Source: Escherichia phage SKA49
Strand: one strand, 5' to 3'
Length of the DNA: 51,548 bases
Sequence record: NC_079180.1
In this document: piece by piece, positions 8,803 through 51,470 of the stretch
Numbering within the stretch: the stretch's first letter is position 1
Layout: the number at the start of each line of letters is the position of its first letter
The notes under the pieces: generated by a model
Database searches by the model: none
Seen by the model: the letters and a program-made list of their open reading frames with translations, nothing else
What the model was told of the DNA's origin: nothing
Program-made: the position numbers and the translations under genes

Positions 8803-9058
8803 AGAATTAGCTGACCGACTAACGGCAGCAAAGAAAGAGCTTGCAACGCACACCATTCGTGTTAATTCTCTTAAGGCACTCCCTTCTGGTGAGGAAATCT
8901 CACTATTCACAGACAATATTTGGTTTACCATGAATCGTGCGCAGTTTGTTGAGATTCAGGACCAACGTTTGGCTGAACTGGAGCAGAGAGTCAGAAATTA
9001 CGAAGGTTTGTTGCAAACTTTACAAGCAACTCTGGACCAGGAGTTGGGAAATGTCTAA
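8792..9058 (+). CDS. hypothetical coiled-coil protein (88 aa, GTG start)
   Basis: Track ORF; weak RBS. Confidence 0.4.
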   Translation: MKVEELADRLTAAKKELATHTIRVNSLKALPSGEEISLFTDNIWFTMNRAQFVEIQDQRLAELEQRVRNYEGLLQTLQATLDQELGNV

Positions 9059-9467
9059 TGTTAAGTTGGGCCAACGCTCACTTGACCGACTCAAAGGTGT
9101 AAATCCCTCATTAGTGGCAGTTTTCAAGCGTGCATGTGAAACAATGCCGTTTGATGTAACTGTTCTTGAAGGATTGCGCACTTATGAGCGGCAACAAGAG
9201 CTTTTAAAGCAGGGTGCAACCAAAGTTTCAGTTAGCCGACACATGTCAGGCAATGCTTTAGATATTGCACCGTATCCAATTGACTGGAATGACCTCGAAC
9301 GATTCAAAGTTTTAGCTCATCATATGTTCAAAGCTGCAAAAGAGCTTGGAATTACCATTCGTTGGGGTGGGAACTGGGGCCGTATTGATGAAAATCAACC
9401 GTATCCACCACTCGCACCAGGTAAGAAGAAGCTGATTGATATGCCGCACTTCGAACTTCCAGCATAA
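9051..9467 (+). CDS. peptidase M15-family peptidoglycan hydrolase (L-alanyl-D-glutamate peptidase-like)
   Basis: LEGLRTYERQQELLKQGATKVSVSRHMSGNALDIAPYPIDWNDLERF resembles the His/Asp zinc-site block of T5-type endolysins; GGAG RBS; in frame with track ORF 8937..9467. Confidence 0.65.
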   Translation: MSNVKLGQRSLDRLKGVNPSLVAVFKRACETMPFDVTVLEGLRTYERQQELLKQGATKVSVSRHMSGNALDIAPYPIDWNDLERFKVLAHHMFKAAKELGITIRWGGNWGRIDENQPYPPLAPGKKKLIDMPHFELPA

Positions 9468-12898: not shown

Positions 12899-13795
12899 GT
12901 TGCCGATGGCAAACTTGAGAGACTAAGCTAAATCGATCTGGCATGCACTGGAAGTTTCCGGTGCTGCCTTGAACCCATTCCAGAGTGAGTGGGCTTCAAT
13001 TTGTACATAATTCAAACACCAGTGCATGAGCCTTCGACGGAAGGCAATGTTGGGAAATTTGTTGTGTACAAATTGAAGTAGTTTTCTGAGTCTTACGACG
13101 GGCCTAAACTGCCTGGAGTTATTGCGACTGTTTTATTCATTTAAAATAAATGCAAATGATTCTGAAATGCGAGTTGCGGCTTAATTAAATTTAAGTCCTC
13201 TCCGTGGTCTTCCAATCCCACGTAACCAAATTTGGCGCATTGTGGCTTCGAGATGTGATTAATAAATCGGAGCAATAATTAATTTGTATTCTGCGATGCA
13301 AAGCAGGCTTAAGTCCTCCAGTGCGCGTGGGGATGTGACAGAGTACAAACTTAATTATGCAGTTGGATATTTCTAGAGGACGGACGAGCACACTGGAATG
13401 TCTTCAATTGGTTTAGTGTGAGAAGCTATGCCAATTTGAAACGTAACTCCTTGGGGAAGTGCTCCTCTGGATTTCCCTCCACGCAGGAATCTCAAGCCTG
13501 TGGCAGTGACTTCGAAGCTGCACTGCGTAACCTAATTCACCCTAAAGTGAATTGCCCTGAGCATGGAAATAAACTGCTCAAACCGATGGTATCTACAAAG
13601 GTAGATTAAATCAGGTTGCCTGTTGGTACTTGGGTTCAACACCTGCTTGCACTCGCAAAGTAGTGCCTCGTACCTGAGATGAAGTGAGTCGGGACCATCA
13701 ATCCCACGTTATGTCAAAACACAGTAGGCGACTCACGGATTCTACAAGCCTCGCAGTTCGGGAAAACCTGCGTTATCAAAACCCCCCACCTATTT

Positions 13796-13887
13796 GGACG
13801 AGTAGCTCAGAAGGTTTGCATTGTGCTCAGTCAGGTAGAGCAATCTGTTCGACAGATGTGTCGTTGGTTCGAATCCAACCTCGTCCA
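13796..13887 (+). tRNA. tRNA-like element (possible tRNA gene or pseudogene; isotype undetermined)
   Basis: Perfect 7-bp acceptor stem GGACGAG/CTCGTCC, canonical T-arm GTTGG-TTCGAAT-CCAAC, discriminator A; core about 19 nt longer than standard, with duplicated GCTCAG flanking a 20-nt insert. Confidence 0.4.
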
Positions 13888-13917
13888 CCCATTTTCAACA
13901 ATAAACATGGAGTCCTC

Positions 13918-14058
13918 ATGGACATTGATGCACTAGACAATTTGGACTTCGGTGCTGCCGAAGAAGCAATTGAAGAACTCAAGAAAAAGCAGGACGAAGA
14001 AGCAATCGTTCCTGGTGCTGGCGATAATGACTGCTCAAGCGGTGCGTGTGCCATCTAA
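13918..14058 (+). CDS. possible small acidic protein (46 aa)
   Basis: ATG with GGAG RBS 7 nt upstream; C-terminal part of track ORF 13684..14058, whose 5' part overlaps the tRNA-like element. Confidence 0.3.
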   Translation: MDIDALDNLDFGAAEEAIEELKKKQDEEAIVPGAGDNDCSSGACAI

Positions 14059-14066
14059 GGTGATTT

Positions 14067-14303
14067 ATGCAACAGCTTAAATCAGTAATTCTTGGCGTCC
14101 TGACTGCATTTGGTATTATCATTGCAGTGTTCCTCAAAGGCAAAAGCTCAGGCAAAGCCGAGGAGCGTCAGGAAGCCAAAGAGAAGCAATTCGATTCCAT
14201 TAAAGAATCTATCGAGATTAAAACGCATGTTCAGAAAGAAGTGTCTAGCAGTTCTGATAGCAATGTCGATAGTGAGTTGCTCTCAAAGTGGGTTCGTAAG
14301 TGA
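14067..14303 (+). CDS. small membrane protein (N-terminal TM helix, charged C-terminus; 78 aa)
   Basis: AAGGTGA RBS; TM segment SVILGVLTAFGIIIAVFL. Confidence 0.45.
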   Translation: MQQLKSVILGVLTAFGIIIAVFLKGKSSGKAEERQEAKEKQFDSIKESIEIKTHVQKEVSSSSDSNVDSELLSKWVRK

Positions 14304-14436
14304 TTATTGCTTAATTGCACAACCAATCTATTTGGATGTTGCAGAAGTGAAAATCTTATCACGCGAAACCAAAACACAGATTCTAGTCCACAATGAAACG
14401 TGGGCACAAAAGTGTTCTCAACTTACCCGACAGTGA
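14227..14436 (+). CDS. possible lipoprotein (69 aa) overlapping the 3' end of 14067..14303 in another frame
   Basis: Signal-like MFRKKCLAVLIAMSIVSC with lipobox-like IVSC; weak RBS. Confidence 0.25.
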   Translation: MFRKKCLAVLIAMSIVSCSQSGFVSDYCLIAQPIYLDVAEVKILSRETKTQILVHNETWAQKCSQLTRQ

Positions 14437-46888: not shown

Positions 46889-48279
46889 TGGCGCTTCGTC
46901 CTAAATTAAATCGCGTATGGACTTCAAATAACACTGTTGCCAGACGTGACCCAGGGGATGCAAAGTATCTCCAAGGTTGGGTTGCTGAGATACCAACCTA
47001 TCAAGTTTTAAACTATTTGCAGTATAAAGTTGATACCACAATGCTTGCTCAGGCGGAACGTGGAATCTTCGAGTGGGGTGGTGATGTTTCTTATGGTGTT
47101 GGCAGTTTGGCTTGGGACGAAACAAACAAAACTATTTATGTTTGTACTGTAACAAACCCAAGCAAGACTTTGGCCCCAAGTGCCAACCCAGCACAATGGA
47201 GTCCGAGCGCCATTCAGGTATCTCGTGCCAACTATGACTCTGTTGTATCTGCAATCAATACCCATATTGCAAACCGAGCAAACCCTCACCAAGTAACTGC
47301 TGCACAGGTTGGTACATACAACCGTGCTGAAATGGATGCACTTGTATCCAACTATCGAGCAATGGTGTTGGCGCATGCCTCTGACTACAACAACCCACAT
47401 AAGCTAACTGCTGTTCAAGTTGGTGCTGTTCCTGTAACTGGTGGTGAGTATACTGGTCAGGTAACTATGCCGACCGCCTACTTCAATGCCTCCAAGACTG
47501 CACAACTGTTGCAAGACAATGGACTATGGTTGAAGAATGGCAACTACTTACTAGGTATTAACGGTACGACAGGGAATCCCGAAGCAGGAACTGCTGCAAG
47601 CAAGTCCAGGATAGTCACAGAATCTAACTTCCCAGACTTGAAAGCTGCACAAGAGCCTAAATATGCAGTAGAAGCGCCATACTATGAAATGGCACTAATA
47701 GGTTCTGTAAACATACTTCGTGGCGCAGGAACATTCAGTACCGGAGACTCCGAGCCTATGTACTTGGCATCATCTGGGAATGCTCTAACATTCGACAGCA
47801 CACCAACCAGCCCAGCACAGAGATTCGAAGCCTCTTCACAACTTCCTGCTAGCTCAAGTATTACAGTCTGTGCCGATGTTATGAGGGTGTCACAGTCTGA
47901 TACGAGTGATGGCAACTGGCAGCTGAGTTTCGGCACCGCAGATTTCAATATCACTATTGGGTACAATGGGTATACGACCATCAGGTTCAGAGGCCCAACA
48001 GGAGGTATTGTTGCAATGCAGGGGGTAATCTCCCAAGATTTGAAAACTGTTGGTGTGTGGAACAGGTTGTCGGCAACACTTTCTGGAAGCACTATTAAGG
48101 TGTTTGTAAACGGTGTACTGCTATTCTCCAGAGAGCAAGAAGTGGGTGTTGCAGTTGGGAGAGCGCCATTTATAACTAAATGGAGTATGGTTGGGGCTAC
48201 CACAAACTCTAGAATATCTATTAGGTCTTTTAGGTTGTGGAACTCGGCACTAACAGACAAACAAATTTCAACTTTATAG
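46888..48279 (+). CDS. tail fibre protein
   Basis: ATG with GAGG RBS; in frame with track ORF 46837..48279. Confidence 0.5.
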   Translation: MALRPKLNRVWTSNNTVARRDPGDAKYLQGWVAEIPTYQVLNYLQYKVDTTMLAQAERGIFEWGGDVSYGVGSLAWDETNKTIYVCTVTNPSKTLAPSANPAQWSPSAIQVSRANYDSVVSAINTHIANRANPHQVTAAQVGTYNRAEMDALVSNYRAMVLAHASDYNNPHKLTAVQVGAVPVTGGEYTGQVTMPTAYFNASKTAQLLQDNGLWLKNGNYLLGINGTTGNPEAGTAASKSRIVTESNFPDLKAAQEPKYAVEAPYYEMALIGSVNILRGAGTFSTGDSEPMYLASSGNALTFDSTPTSPAQRFEASSQLPASSSITVCADVMRVSQSDTSDGNWQLSFGTADFNITIGYNGYTTIRFRGPTGGIVAMQGVISQDLKTVGVWNRLSATLSGSTIKVFVNGVLLFSREQEVGVAVGRAPFITKWSMVGATTNSRISIRSFRLWNSALTDKQISTL

Positions 48280-48287
48280 GATTCAAA

Positions 48288-49361
48288 ATGGCTAAAGGTT
48301 ATTCTTTAGATGCGCTAGTTCAAGAGCACTACATTAAAGATGCAGTTGGTTTAGATGTCAGCAATATAAATGATAAGTGGGGCGCGGATAATGTAGGGAC
48401 ATTCTTCCAAAACCTGCATGTAAATGCAACAGTTGAGAACGGGTATCCTTACGGAGCCTCGGCAGGCAACTTGGAAGTGCTACTTACTAATGCCGGTACT
48501 CTTGATAACTGCGTACAGAGATACACAAACTTTAATGATTTAAGAATGTGGATTCGCTCTCAAGACCGTGGAGCTGGAAACAGGACTTGGACACCTTGGA
48601 TGGAGCTTATAAATGCGAACAACATTTATAAAGCAATCTACCCAATTGGAATTGTTCTCCAGTTTGACAATGCCACCAACCCAAATAACTCCTTCACAGG
48701 AACATCTTGGGTACAAATCGTAGATGGTCGCTCTGTTCGTGCAGCGTCTTCTGCGGAAGTTGGCACTGAACTTGGTCAGATTGGTGCGATTGTTGGTGAA
48801 GATGAAGTTACCATTGCTGTGGCTAACCTCCCATCCCACACTCACAACATGCGTAACCATACACACTCCATCGCGTCCCACACACACACTATGGCCCACA
48901 CGCACTCAATCAACCACGACCACGGTGCAGTGACCTCAAGTTCAGGTGGTGCTCACACGCACAGCTTAAGCGGCACTGCTGCTTCTGCTGGTGCACACCA
49001 ACACACAGAAGGTTCGCCGTTTACTGGTGATGTCAATTTTGGTGCTACCTCAAGCACCAGTAAGAATAATATCAAAGACTGGTTGTACAGCCCATCTACA
49101 AGATACCCGCTAACCTCATCTTCCGGTGCCCATACACACAGTGTTAGTGGAACTGCCAACTCTGCTGGCGCTCACACGCACTCTGTAGACCTGCCTAACT
49201 TCACTGGCACTAGCGGAGGCTCTAGCGCAGGAAGCACTGGTGGAACAGCTTTGACAACTGGTGCTCCTAGCTCTAACGAATCGGATGCGACTGGTGGTGG
49301 CTCTAAGCTGACCGTCCGTAACGCCTCACACTATTATGCCCTCTGGAAACGAGTGGCTTAA
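48288..49361 (+). CDS. tail fibre protein with collar-like domain and HxH repeat tract
   Basis: HTHNMRNHTHSIASHTHTMAHTHSINHDH followed by GGAHTHS and GAHTHS repeats; ATG with AGGA RBS; in frame with track ORF 48237..49361. Confidence 0.55.
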   Translation: MAKGYSLDALVQEHYIKDAVGLDVSNINDKWGADNVGTFFQNLHVNATVENGYPYGASAGNLEVLLTNAGTLDNCVQRYTNFNDLRMWIRSQDRGAGNRTWTPWMELINANNIYKAIYPIGIVLQFDNATNPNNSFTGTSWVQIVDGRSVRAASSAEVGTELGQIGAIVGEDEVTIAVANLPSHTHNMRNHTHSIASHTHTMAHTHSINHDHGAVTSSSGGAHTHSLSGTAASAGAHQHTEGSPFTGDVNFGATSSTSKNNIKDWLYSPSTRYPLTSSSGAHTHSVSGTANSAGAHTHSVDLPNFTGTSGGSSAGSTGGTALTTGAPSSNESDATGGGSKLTVRNASHYYALWKRVA

Positions 49362-49369
49362 GGAAAATA

Positions 49370-49711
49370 ATGGAACGATTATCCATTCAGATGTTTATCG
49401 ACCTCATGCACCAATATGGTGTTTGGCATGGATTGCTGGCTGGTCTGACGGCTTTAATCCGTGGGGCATATGAAAGTGAGGGATTAAGCAAAGCGTTGCT
49501 GGATGCAGCGCTATGCAGCTTGATTGGCCTGTTTGCCTTTCATGTTGCTGGCACATTTGAAACTTTTACGACTAACGTCACAATGCAGTTAGTTCTGGCT
49601 ATCGTGATTGGTGTCATTGGTGCTAACCTCATTATCACAACTGTCAGGGAAAGTTTCTCTGGCGCAATCAAACAACTTAACCCTTTAACGTGGTTCAAGA
49701 AGGCACGATGA
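49370..49711 (+). CDS. holin (lambda S-like)
   Basis: AAGGA RBS; 113 aa with hydrophobic segments GLLAGLTALI, LCSLIGLFAFHVAG, LVLAIVIGVIGANLIITTV. Confidence 0.65.
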   Translation: MERLSIQMFIDLMHQYGVWHGLLAGLTALIRGAYESEGLSKALLDAALCSLIGLFAFHVAGTFETFTTNVTMQLVLAIVIGVIGANLIITTVRESFSGAIKQLNPLTWFKKAR

Positions 49712-49728
49712 AATGATAAGGAACTCGA

Positions 49729-50283
49729 ATGCTATCATTCAAAGTCCTTGCACTTCTGGCAGCTTTAGTTCACATCAACGCCCCAGCTTCGGTTGGGGCA
49801 GTGAATTCTGCTATTACAGATTTTGCAAGTCATTCTTATTTAAATGGAAGTCTGAAACTATCTTCTTCACAACGCAAAGAGCTAGAATGCTACACTAAAG
49901 TTATCTGGTATGAAGCTCGCGGAGAAGACAAACATGGAAAGATTCTGGTAGCTAATGTCGTCCGTAATAGAACTGAGTTCGGGAAGCCATTCGCTAACAC
50001 CGTTTGTGATGTTGTCTATCAACGCAATCAATTTGCATGGACACGAGAAGCAAAGAAGAAGAATGCTCAATGGAAGCATGTAGCAAAGATTAATTATGCC
50101 ACAGAACAACAACAAGTTCTGGACACCATTAGTGTTGCAATCTCTTTTGTACTATTTAATCAACCCTCTGTCACCAAAGCAACCCACTTTTGTACAGCAT
50201 CTGAGAAGTGCAACTTCAAGAATGTTAAAGGTCTGGGACGTTATGGTGGCCATAAATTCTATGAGTATCTAGGAAATCTGTAA
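49729..50283 (+). CDS. SleB/CwlJ-like cell wall hydrolase with N-terminal signal sequence (endolysin candidate)
   Basis: [25 protein letters not shown]...[15 protein letters not shown]; N-terminus [24 protein letters not shown]; AAGGA RBS. Confidence 0.7.
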
Positions 50284-51383
50284 TGGCTTACACTACCTTT
50301 TCACAAACCAAGAATAACCAACTACTAGAGCCAATGTTCTTTGGTCAGAACGTTAACGTTGCTCGATATGACCAACAGAAGTACAGCATCTTCGAGAAGT
50401 TAATCGAGAAGCAGTTGTCTTTCTTTTGGCGACCTGAGGAGGTTGATGTTAGCCAGGACCGAATTGACTATGCTGGTCTTCCTGAGTGTGAGAAACACAT
50501 TTTCACCAGCAATTTACGATACCAAATCTTGCTTGATTCCATTCAGGGACGTGGGCCAACTACAGTTTTGCTACCAATTGTGAGCATTCCTGAGCTTGAA
50601 ACTTGGATTGAAACTTGGTCATTCTCAGAGACAATTCACTCTCGTTCTTACACGCATATTATTCGCAATATTGTCACCGACCCAAGCGTCATCTTTGATG
50701 AAATTGTGGAGAATGAGCATATTAAAATGCGTGCAATTGGCATCTCCCAATATTATGACGAGCTTCAACACCTGACTTCCATGTGGCATCTGCATGAAGA
50801 TAAAGTTTCTCTTCGTGAGCTTAAGAAGAAGCTGTATTTATGCCTAATGTCCATCAATGCACTGGAAGCAATTCGCTTTTATGTCAGTTTTGCTTGCTCA
50901 TTTGCCTTCGCTGAACGCAAGTTAATGGAAGGAAATGCCAAGATTATTCGCTTAATTGCTCGTGATGAAGCGCTCCATTTGACCGGAACTCAACACATGC
51001 TGAACCTTCTTGCAAGCGGTGCTGATGACCCAGAAATGGCCGAAATTGCTAAAGAATGCCGCCAAGAATGCCAAGAAATGTTCGAAAATGTGGCCCAACA
51101 AGAGAAAGATTGGGCTGATTATTTGTTCAAAGATGGCTCAATGATTGGCTTAAACAGGCAAATTCTGTGCGGATATGTGGAATATATTACAAATATTCGT
51201 ATGCAAGCAGTTGGATTGGATGCTCCATTCAAAGGTGCTACTAACCCGATTCCTTGGATTAACGCATGGTTGAATTCGGATGCTGTACAAGTTGCTCCAC
51301 AAGAAACGGAGATTAGTTCGTACCTTGTTGGGCAGATTGACTCCGAAGTTGACACCAATGCTCTAGGCGGATTTGAACTATGA
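50283..51383 (+). CDS. nrdB: class Ia ribonucleotide reductase beta subunit
   Basis: Near-colinear with enterobacterial NrdB as I recall it: [54 protein letters not shown]-terminal [13 protein letters not shown]; one short internal deletion. Confidence 0.85.
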
Positions 51384-51470
51384 TTGGGTACGGTGAAGGC
51401 TGACGTTTGTCAGTTAATATGTGAGAAGAGATTCGATGCGTTAGCGTCGTTTCTCTTTGAACTAGAATAA

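Follow-up and report, generated by a model that had tools for sequence, protein, structure and literature searches.

Two adjacent genes of Escherichia phage SKA49 were analysed as a candidate lysis cassette: a gene for a holin of the lambda S family and, directly downstream, a gene for a SleB-like muralytic enzyme that carries a signal-peptide-like N-terminus (Table 1). The window, i.e. the whole stretch of DNA that was analysed (51,548 nucleotides, sequence record NC_079180.1), covers nearly the whole genome of this Carltongylesvirus (Chaseviridae, Cleopatravirinae), and the cassette occupies positions 49370-50283. The explanation that we favour, with a probability of about 0.55, is that of a late cassette in which the S-type holin is paired with a SleB-family enzyme that would be exported by the Sec pathway and probably cleaved, and which would act together with an M15 peptidase and a spanin pair encoded elsewhere in the genome.

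Members of the predicted lysis system

The interval contained exactly two open reading frames (ORFs), both on the same strand. AAGGA precedes the holin start; the hydrolase start lies 17 nt past the holin gene, with an AAGGA ribosome-binding site in front. The initial annotation had described an S-like holin followed by a SleB-like hydrolase, and the gene order and the profile matches given below agreed with this description for both proteins.

The hydrolase matched Pfam PF07486 (Hydrolase_2) over residues 65-178 (E-value 1.3e-15; score 58.3 bits, cut-off 27; all 100 profile positions covered) and PHROG 938 (endolysin, E-value 6e-20). When the protein was used as query in a phmmer search of the PDB, the sole hits were 4F55 and 4FET, both catalytic domains of SleB, with YEARGE aligned to GESRGE. 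A structure was modelled with AlphaFold2 on 62 homologues (predicted local distance difference test, pLDDT, 86; predicted template modelling score, pTM, 0.80). In a Foldseek search of the PDB, this model matched 4F55 and 4FET with a probability of 1.00 (target template modelling score 0.64-0.65, E-value ~0.02), while the next match had a probability of 0.11. E62 and E66 were invariant in 62/62 homologues, and E62 was aligned to the first Glu of the SleB motif, which, going by the chain numbering, would be the published catalytic Glu of SleB. The hydrolase is probably a lytic transglycosylase whose candidate catalytic residue is E62. By profile score it is SleB-like and not a SleB orthologue: it fell far under the cut-off of the NCBIfam equivalog TIGR02869, spore_SleB (29.1 versus 236.5 bits).

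Bacillus SleB, a spore-cortex lytic transglycosylase, has the catalytic fold and the (Y/G)E(A/S)RGE motif in common with the SKA49 hydrolase and is also made with a signal peptide ('prepeptide' in the depositor name). Bacillus SleB differs in having an N-terminal peptidoglycan-binding domain, which the phage protein lacks, and in having no Cys at the aligned positions of C54 and C93. The spore-specific muramic lactam that belongs to the SleB context cannot be the substrate of the SKA49 hydrolase. C54 and C93 were invariant among the 62 homologues of the phage enzyme; C155 and C161 were both present in 59 sequences and both missing from 3, and never occurred one without the other. Such co-occurrence is expected of a disulfide and therefore suggests a periplasmic, exported protein. 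The four conserved cysteines probably form periplasmic disulfides, in the pairs C54-C93 and C155-C161. Between the signal and the catalytic domain, at residues ~31-48 (49819-49872), a conserved segment was observed (FASxSYLNGxLxLSSSQ; A33, Y37, L38, G40 and Q48 invariant). This segment is predicted to be helical and is absent in the T5-like homologues; its role could lie in regulation or in membrane association.

The holin matched Pfam PF05106 (Phage_holin_3_1, the lambda S family; E-value 7.5e-8; score 33.2 bits, cut-off 23.8) and PHROG 126 (holin/anti-holin, E-value 1e-17), and its score was below the cut-off of the NCBIfam equivalog TIGR01594 (30.5 versus 55.05 bits). BLASTP alignment with lambda S covered all three hydrophobic segments (26% identity over 73 amino acids, E-value 5e-7). 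Strong hydropathy peaks were found at residues ~42-61 and ~70-92; the first segment (~17-34), aligned with the first transmembrane domain (TMD) of lambda S, was weaker. Orthologous holins in GenBank are described with 'three TMDs', or with two by TMHMM and three by Phobius. In the phage collection, the holin was confined to Chaseviridae-type genomes (79 records). The protein shares with lambda S the Pfam family, three alignable transmembrane segments, a similar length and a basic C-terminus (...WFKKAR in SKA49), and differs in lacking the dual start of the Met-Lys-Met type. A dual-start antiholin was considered for the SKA49 gene and found no support: the Met-Lys-Met motif is missing, the Myduc and Y2 orthologues do not conserve M8, and neither M8 nor M13 has a Shine-Dalgarno sequence in front. 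The 'pin-holin' label used in the literature (PMC10282059) was unsupported by the lambda-S-type family assignment.

A second peptidoglycan hydrolase, overlooked in the initial annotation, is encoded in the window: an M15 L-alanyl-D-glutamate endopeptidase of the T5 endolysin type. It matched PHROG 465 (endolysin, E-value 2e-54), Pfam Peptidase_M15_4 (E-value 4e-8, above the cut-off) and, in the PDB, 8Q2G (E-value 1e-23) and EndoT5 2MXZ (E-value 7e-20). It has no hydrophobic N-terminus (hydropathy maximum 1.03). It is encoded among the early/middle genes, and ~40 kb separate it from the holin gene. The canonical holin-endolysin logic had been suggested to be altered in this phage; such an alteration would be partial at most, since a signal-less M15 peptidase would still need a hole-forming holin.

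No spanin genes had been evident beside the cassette. This held for the immediate surroundings, where nrdB follows the hydrolase gene directly and the overlapping-frame ORFs in 49336-50283 were rejected as spanins, having neither a signal nor a lipobox. It did not hold for the genome: by homology and architecture, a two-component overlapped spanin pair is encoded at 14067-14436, 35 kb upstream of the cassette. The pair was found via its homology to Mangalitsa_037/038 and via the supplement of Kongari et al. 2018. The i-spanin matched PHROG 1026 (Rz-like spanin, E-value 3e-19) and was 94% identical to Mangalitsa_037; the o-spanin matched PHROG 1275 (Rz-like spanin, E-value 1e-17). The two spanin genes share 77 nt, read in different frames, and the phiEcoM-GJ1 i-spanin is listed with an overlap of the same length (Kongari et al. 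2018, supplement). The orthologues Mangalitsa_037/038 are still labelled hypothetical.

Signal-peptide-like features of the hydrolase N-terminus

The hydrophobic, signal-like N-terminus reported in the initial annotation was recovered here: the Kyte-Doolittle maximum over 19 residues was 1.77, and the n/h/c architecture was kept in all 62 aligned homologues (44-97% identity), so that the hydrophobic N-terminus is not a chance feature. Two fates had been offered for it, Sec-dependent export or a signal-anchor-release (SAR) endolysin. The export signal stood; as to the choice between the two, the evidence favours the cleavable Sec option and is less favourable to SAR. We lean towards a cleavable Sec signal peptide rather than a SAR anchor and, judging from the sequence features, see very little chance that the hydrolase is not exported. 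M1 is the sole Met of the protein; the annotated start is therefore likely and the hydrophobic segment would always be present in the product. Two other routes of export were rejected: the lipoprotein route, because no Cys follows the h-region, and the Tat route, because there is no twin-Arg.

The uninterrupted apolar run (V6-V14) was 9 residues long, and 9-14 residues long in orthologues, which fits the ~7-15 apolar residues of the h-region of a type I signal peptide, set between a short n-region and a polar c-region. A SAR domain is expected to have ~20 such residues, uninterrupted and rich in Gly/Ala/Ser/Thr; H15, N17 and P19 interrupt the span that the SAR reading needs. In the AlphaFold2 model, residues 5-14 formed a helix that was broken at 15-21, with pLDDT below 50 at 17-20. 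Among the 62 homologues the hydrophobic core varied freely and the Ala/Ser/Gly-rich stretch after it was conserved: 57/60 have Ala where the SKA49 hydrolase has A20, and 55/60 have Ser aligned with S21. The n-region has one Lys here and none in some homologues. As read from the alignment rows, the -3 position was occupied by small or neutral residues only (e.g. Ala, Val, Ser, Thr). At least one site that obeys the (-3,-1) rule without Pro at P2 was present in each distinct homologue N-terminus, although every homologue passes this rule, which admits sites too readily in a stretch so rich in Ala, Ser and Gly to discriminate. Candidate signal peptidase sites are present and conserved in the hydrolase. 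VGA↓V (the arrow marks the candidate cleavage point) follows the small -3/-1 rule with no Pro from -3 to +1; APA↓S, the best-conserved motif, has Pro at -2, which could block cleavage at this main site.

Cleavable signals were more distinct in some orthologues. Y2 gp88 has a textbook example (MRKFFLLILLLMAVPASA↓GT), as has the Myduc protein (...LLTFGASVHA↓ESSH), and cleavable signals were also found in P0041 (...FFAQSAEA↓MPD) and P0062 (...FSFQSHA↓NFEQ, hydropathy maximum 0.9). In all four, charged residues come right after the AxA-type site. For the wider clade, 1.8 billion proteins were searched with a profile and the best 149 representatives (50% identity clusters) were classified by a crude rule: 108 of the 149 had a short signal-type core, 11 a long apolar run, 2 a lipobox and 28 none of these (some being fragments). 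A precedent is provided by T4 RI: experiments showed that what had been claimed as its SAR domain is a signal peptide that is cleaved off (PMC8385771).

Several points weigh against cleavage. The signal-peptide call was made by rules and by comparison, and the conserved A-x-A↓S motif has Pro at P2 here and in 37/60 homologues. Pro is disfavoured from P3 to P1' of signal peptidase sites (PMC2638155; remarked also in PMC8385771), so cleavage at APA↓S may be poor. The VGA↓V site is well formed but less conserved, its P1 residue being Thr, Val or Asn in ~23/62 homologues. The hydropathy maximum exceeds the classical transmembrane threshold of 1.6, and it is for this reason that the Mangalitsa, DE15, 4HA13 and PP101 proteins were annotated as 'SAR endolysin'. 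E. coli cells do not normally survive an active muralytic enzyme that is freely soluble in their periplasm, so that a hydrolase without its signal would have to be held in check by some further means. In addition, the literature search found no experiment on the SKA49 hydrolase or on any orthologue.

Proposed lysis mechanism and competing explanations

In the proposed order of events, the 113-amino-acid lambda-S-type holin would accumulate in the inner membrane, and the hydrolase precursor would be exported by Sec during late expression and most likely be cut by signal peptidase I near residues 20-24. The mature enzyme (~160-164 residues, 18.3-18.6 kDa, isoelectric point 9.5) would be soluble in the periplasm and probably oxidised, with two disulfides. 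On triggering, the holin would depolarise the membrane and open holes; the periplasmic hydrolase would be unleashed or boosted, the cytoplasmic M15 peptidase would reach the wall via the holin holes, and the wall would be cut in its glycan strands as well as in its peptide stems. The distant spanin pair would then break the outer membrane. Early lysis would have to be restrained, and either a SAR tether or a dependence on membrane potential would account for a silent periplasmic enzyme; the latter is documented for secreted endolysins of Gram-positive phages (review PMC6116005).

The logic proposed here is that of Lys44 of the Oenococcus phage fOg44, which is exported by Sec and loses its signal before lysis, the holin mainly dissipating the potential (PMC6116005). 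Lys44 differs in its Gram-positive host and in its unrelated catalytic domain; export and cleavage were demonstrated for Lys44, whereas for SKA49 they are inferred. The same domain as in the SKA49 hydrolase, at ~30% identity, was found in the T5.083 homologues of T5-like phages and in CB7_83/CR3_087 of the Vequintavirinae. The signals of the T5-like homologues are short and of the cleavable type (SE3, ...SSLPAYA↓T; Slocum, ...FIAIA↓S after start correction); the annotated start of the Slocum gene drops the signal and the catalytic Glu region. Both the T5.083 and the Vequintavirinae homologues lack the ~25-residue conserved segment that separates signal and catalytic domain in SKA49 and, unlike in SKA49, the SleB-like gene was not beside the holin gene in the T5-like phages examined. 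In these phages, the M15 peptidase that stands alongside the SleB-like homologue is T5's own endolysin. The SleB-like protein of rV5-like phages is described as having a signal peptide, as toxic to E. coli and, by implication, as taking part in lysis, and a T5-type M15 peptidase co-occurs (PMC7344957). Both an exported SleB-like enzyme and a T5-type M15 peptidase were thus seen in three lineages (the SKA49 group, T5-like and rV5-like phages).

Were the hydrolase a SAR endolysin, residues ~6-25 would be exported by Sec, remain uncleaved and tether an inactive enzyme until it was freed on depolarisation by the holin. This is how P1 Lyz and phage 21 R behave: their export via a hydrophobic N-terminus is Sec-dependent and holin-independent, and their activity is coupled to holin depolarisation. 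Their catalytic domains are of the lysozyme type and unrelated to that of the SKA49 hydrolase. We regard this alternative as rather unlikely, although the tether would solve the premature-lysis problem, the hydropathy peak over residues 6-25 lies above the transmembrane threshold, the second half of this segment is rich in Ala/Gly/Ser, the Pro at P2 of APA↓S could keep signal peptidase from cutting, and curated annotations and two papers use the SAR label. The SAR domains of P1 Lyz and R21 (sequences confirmed against the phage collection at 99.5-100% identity by tblastn) are uninterrupted 20-residue runs with 55-65% Gly/Ala/Ser/Thr, a hydropathy of ~2.1 and no likely cleavage site; against these stand the 9-residue run of the hydrolase, the H, N and P within its putative span and the absence from its N-terminal segment of a conserved Cys for disulfide caging of the P1 type. 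The Y2, Myduc, P0041 and P0062 orthologues are unable to form a 20-residue span, and the Myduc protein was annotated 'not SAR' by the same group that had called that of Mangalitsa SAR. The partner holin is of the lambda-S-type class I and no pinholin, which is nevertheless compatible with SAR.

The role of the enzyme, rather than its anchoring, is at stake if the SleB-like protein is exported as an accessory (e.g. for wall remodelling or lysis completion) and the cytoplasmic M15 peptidase is the true endolysin. This could be argued from the presence of the signal-less T5-endolysin homologue, from the large-hole lambda-S-type holin, which is needed only for a cytoplasmic enzyme such as M15, from the T5-like phages, in which the signal-bearing T5.083 homologues are encoded outside the lysis cassette, among early genes, and from the rV5-like phages, which also have both enzyme types (PMC7344957). 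We consider it distinctly improbable: in all Chaseviridae relatives examined the SleB-like gene is directly 3' of the holin gene, the classical endolysin position, the M15 gene has no membrane protein beside it in its early/middle region, and in the rV5 group CR3_087 is reportedly implicated in lysis and CB7_83 is toxic in E. coli (PMC7344957). Hardly any credence is given to an N-terminus that is no functional signal and to a canonical cytoplasmic, holin-dependent endolysin. The n/h/c architecture in 62 homologues and in most of the 149 distant representatives, the single Met and the conserved Cys pairs all speak against it, and its one point of support is that GenBank describes the Myduc protein as 'No TMD - endolysin (not SAR)' and leaves a signal peptide unmentioned.

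The favoured explanation, a Sec-exported and probably cleaved enzyme, can be taken further, tentatively and with less than even confidence. The cleaved hydrolase would then be free in the periplasm throughout late infection and harmless until the potential collapses, making it a Gram-negative counterpart of Lys44. Together with the M15 peptidase it would bring about lysis by two enzymes and two routes, a pairing that seems to recur in Chaseviridae, T5-like and rV5-like phages, and the SAR label would be wrong as it was for T4 RI. If the signal is cleaved, the cassette would be a tractable means of studying, in E. coli, how a muralytic enzyme that is soluble in the periplasm stays silent until holin triggering. 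It can also be asked why unrelated phage lineages carry an exported SleB-like enzyme plus a cytoplasmic M15 peptidase. For antibacterial use, the mature domain should be expressed from about residue 21-25 onwards, and a need for disulfide formation should be considered.

Existing annotation, relatives and gene neighbourhood

The cassette has already been named in the records of relatives and in two papers, and the finding is therefore known, at the annotation level only. In GenBank, the gene pair is labelled 'holin class I' and 'SAR endolysin' in Mangalitsa, DE15 and 4HA13, and 'holin' and 'endolysin' in ST32 and phiEcoM-GJ1. The 'SAR' of Mangalitsa and the 'not SAR' of Myduc come from one group, so the SAR call depends on the threshold; a cleavable signal peptide is mentioned in none of the Mangalitsa, 4HA13 and Myduc hydrolase annotations. 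The PP101 paper described a two-gene 'holin-SAR endolysin' module in all phages of the group (PMC6989608). According to the SKA49 paper, the genus has two endolysins, an M15 peptidase and a 'putative SAR endolysin', the latter clustered with the holin and the spanin being distant (PMC10282059). As found, the cassette is routine, and what it still offers is a correction and some practical guidance. Only one point is new: the 'SAR' label of these phages, which rests on borderline hydropathy and is contradicted within the group, is probably wrong.

Three further publications were screened. The Pantoea PA1 'Chaseviridae endolysin' paper was set aside, as it concerns an unrelated 217-amino-acid lysozyme-like protein, and so was the 57_3Lys 2026 preprint, which deals with another phage and assigns its endolysin to class II of the SAR type. 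The 2026 paper on a temperature-dependent coliphage contained no lysis-gene data.

The last 2.5 kb of the window showed 93-96% nucleotide identity to Escherichia phages EcoM1, Mangalitsa, TH53, Bp7, ST32 and flopper, and 88% to phiEcoM-GJ1. Equivalent gene pairs in the Carltongylesvirus/Cleopatravirinae are phiEcoM-GJ1 gp73/gp74, Mangalitsa_079/080, ST32 ORF77/78 and PP101 ORF80/81. The order tail fibre, holin, hydrolase, nrdB is identical to that of SKA49, and the proteins are 97-99% identical for the hydrolase as well as for the holin. There is no substantive difference between these modules and that of SKA49, and only the SAR label is in question.

Table 1. Positions of the lysis genes of phage SKA49, their parts and their neighbours in the window.
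Feature	Position	Strand	Description
M15 L-alanyl-D-glutamate endopeptidase (T5 endolysin type)	9051-9467	+	138 amino acids; second peptidoglycan hydrolase
i-spanin	14067-14303	+	78 amino acids; N-terminal transmembrane segment (VILGVLTAFGIIIAVFL), then charged periplasmic domain
o-spanin	14227-14436	+	69 amino acids; lipoprotein signal, lipobox IVS↓C18, sequence MFRKKCLAVLIAMSIVSCSQ...
Tail-fibre gene	48237-49361		Stop 8 nt before the holin start
Holin gene	49370-49711	+	113 amino acids; lambda-S family, class I
SleB-like (Hydrolase_2) muralytic enzyme precursor	49729-50283	+	184 amino acids; predicted lytic transglycosylase
Putative export signal of the hydrolase, residues 1-24	49729-49800	+	n-region MLSFK, h-region VLALLAALV(HI), c-region NAPASVGA
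Candidate signal peptidase I sites of the hydrolase			A24↓V25 (VGA↓V, Pro at P6); A20↓S21 (APA↓S, Pro at P2)
nrdB, ribonucleotide reductase small subunit	50283-51383	+	End of the late block
Terminator-like hairpin	51434-51449 (hairpin plus T-run 51434-51459)	+	After nrdB; consensus scan, weak evidence

The ATG of nrdB overlaps the stop codon of the hydrolase gene (TAATG); this location is odd for a gene of nucleotide metabolism. No terminator-like site was found by consensus scan between the genes of the tail-fibre/holin/hydrolase/nrdB block, and the hairpin after nrdB is the first terminator-like signal in non-coding DNA on the + strand downstream of it; counts from the terminator and promoter scans were no higher in this region than in shuffled sequences, which makes them weak evidence. 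The four genes are tightly packed with no such site between them, and we therefore infer that they would be expressed jointly as late genes.

Mangalitsa_034 (14042-14296) encodes a T4 Imm-like superinfection immunity protein, of which no homologue was found in the window (tblastn, E-value cut-off of 1e-3 or less). The small genes that flank its position were 97% conserved in the window. Just upstream of the spanin genes, a single tRNA-Leu(CAG), unusually long at 97 nt, was predicted by ARAGORN at 13795-13891 (+); in relatives, a tRNA-Arg has been reported (ST32 paper).

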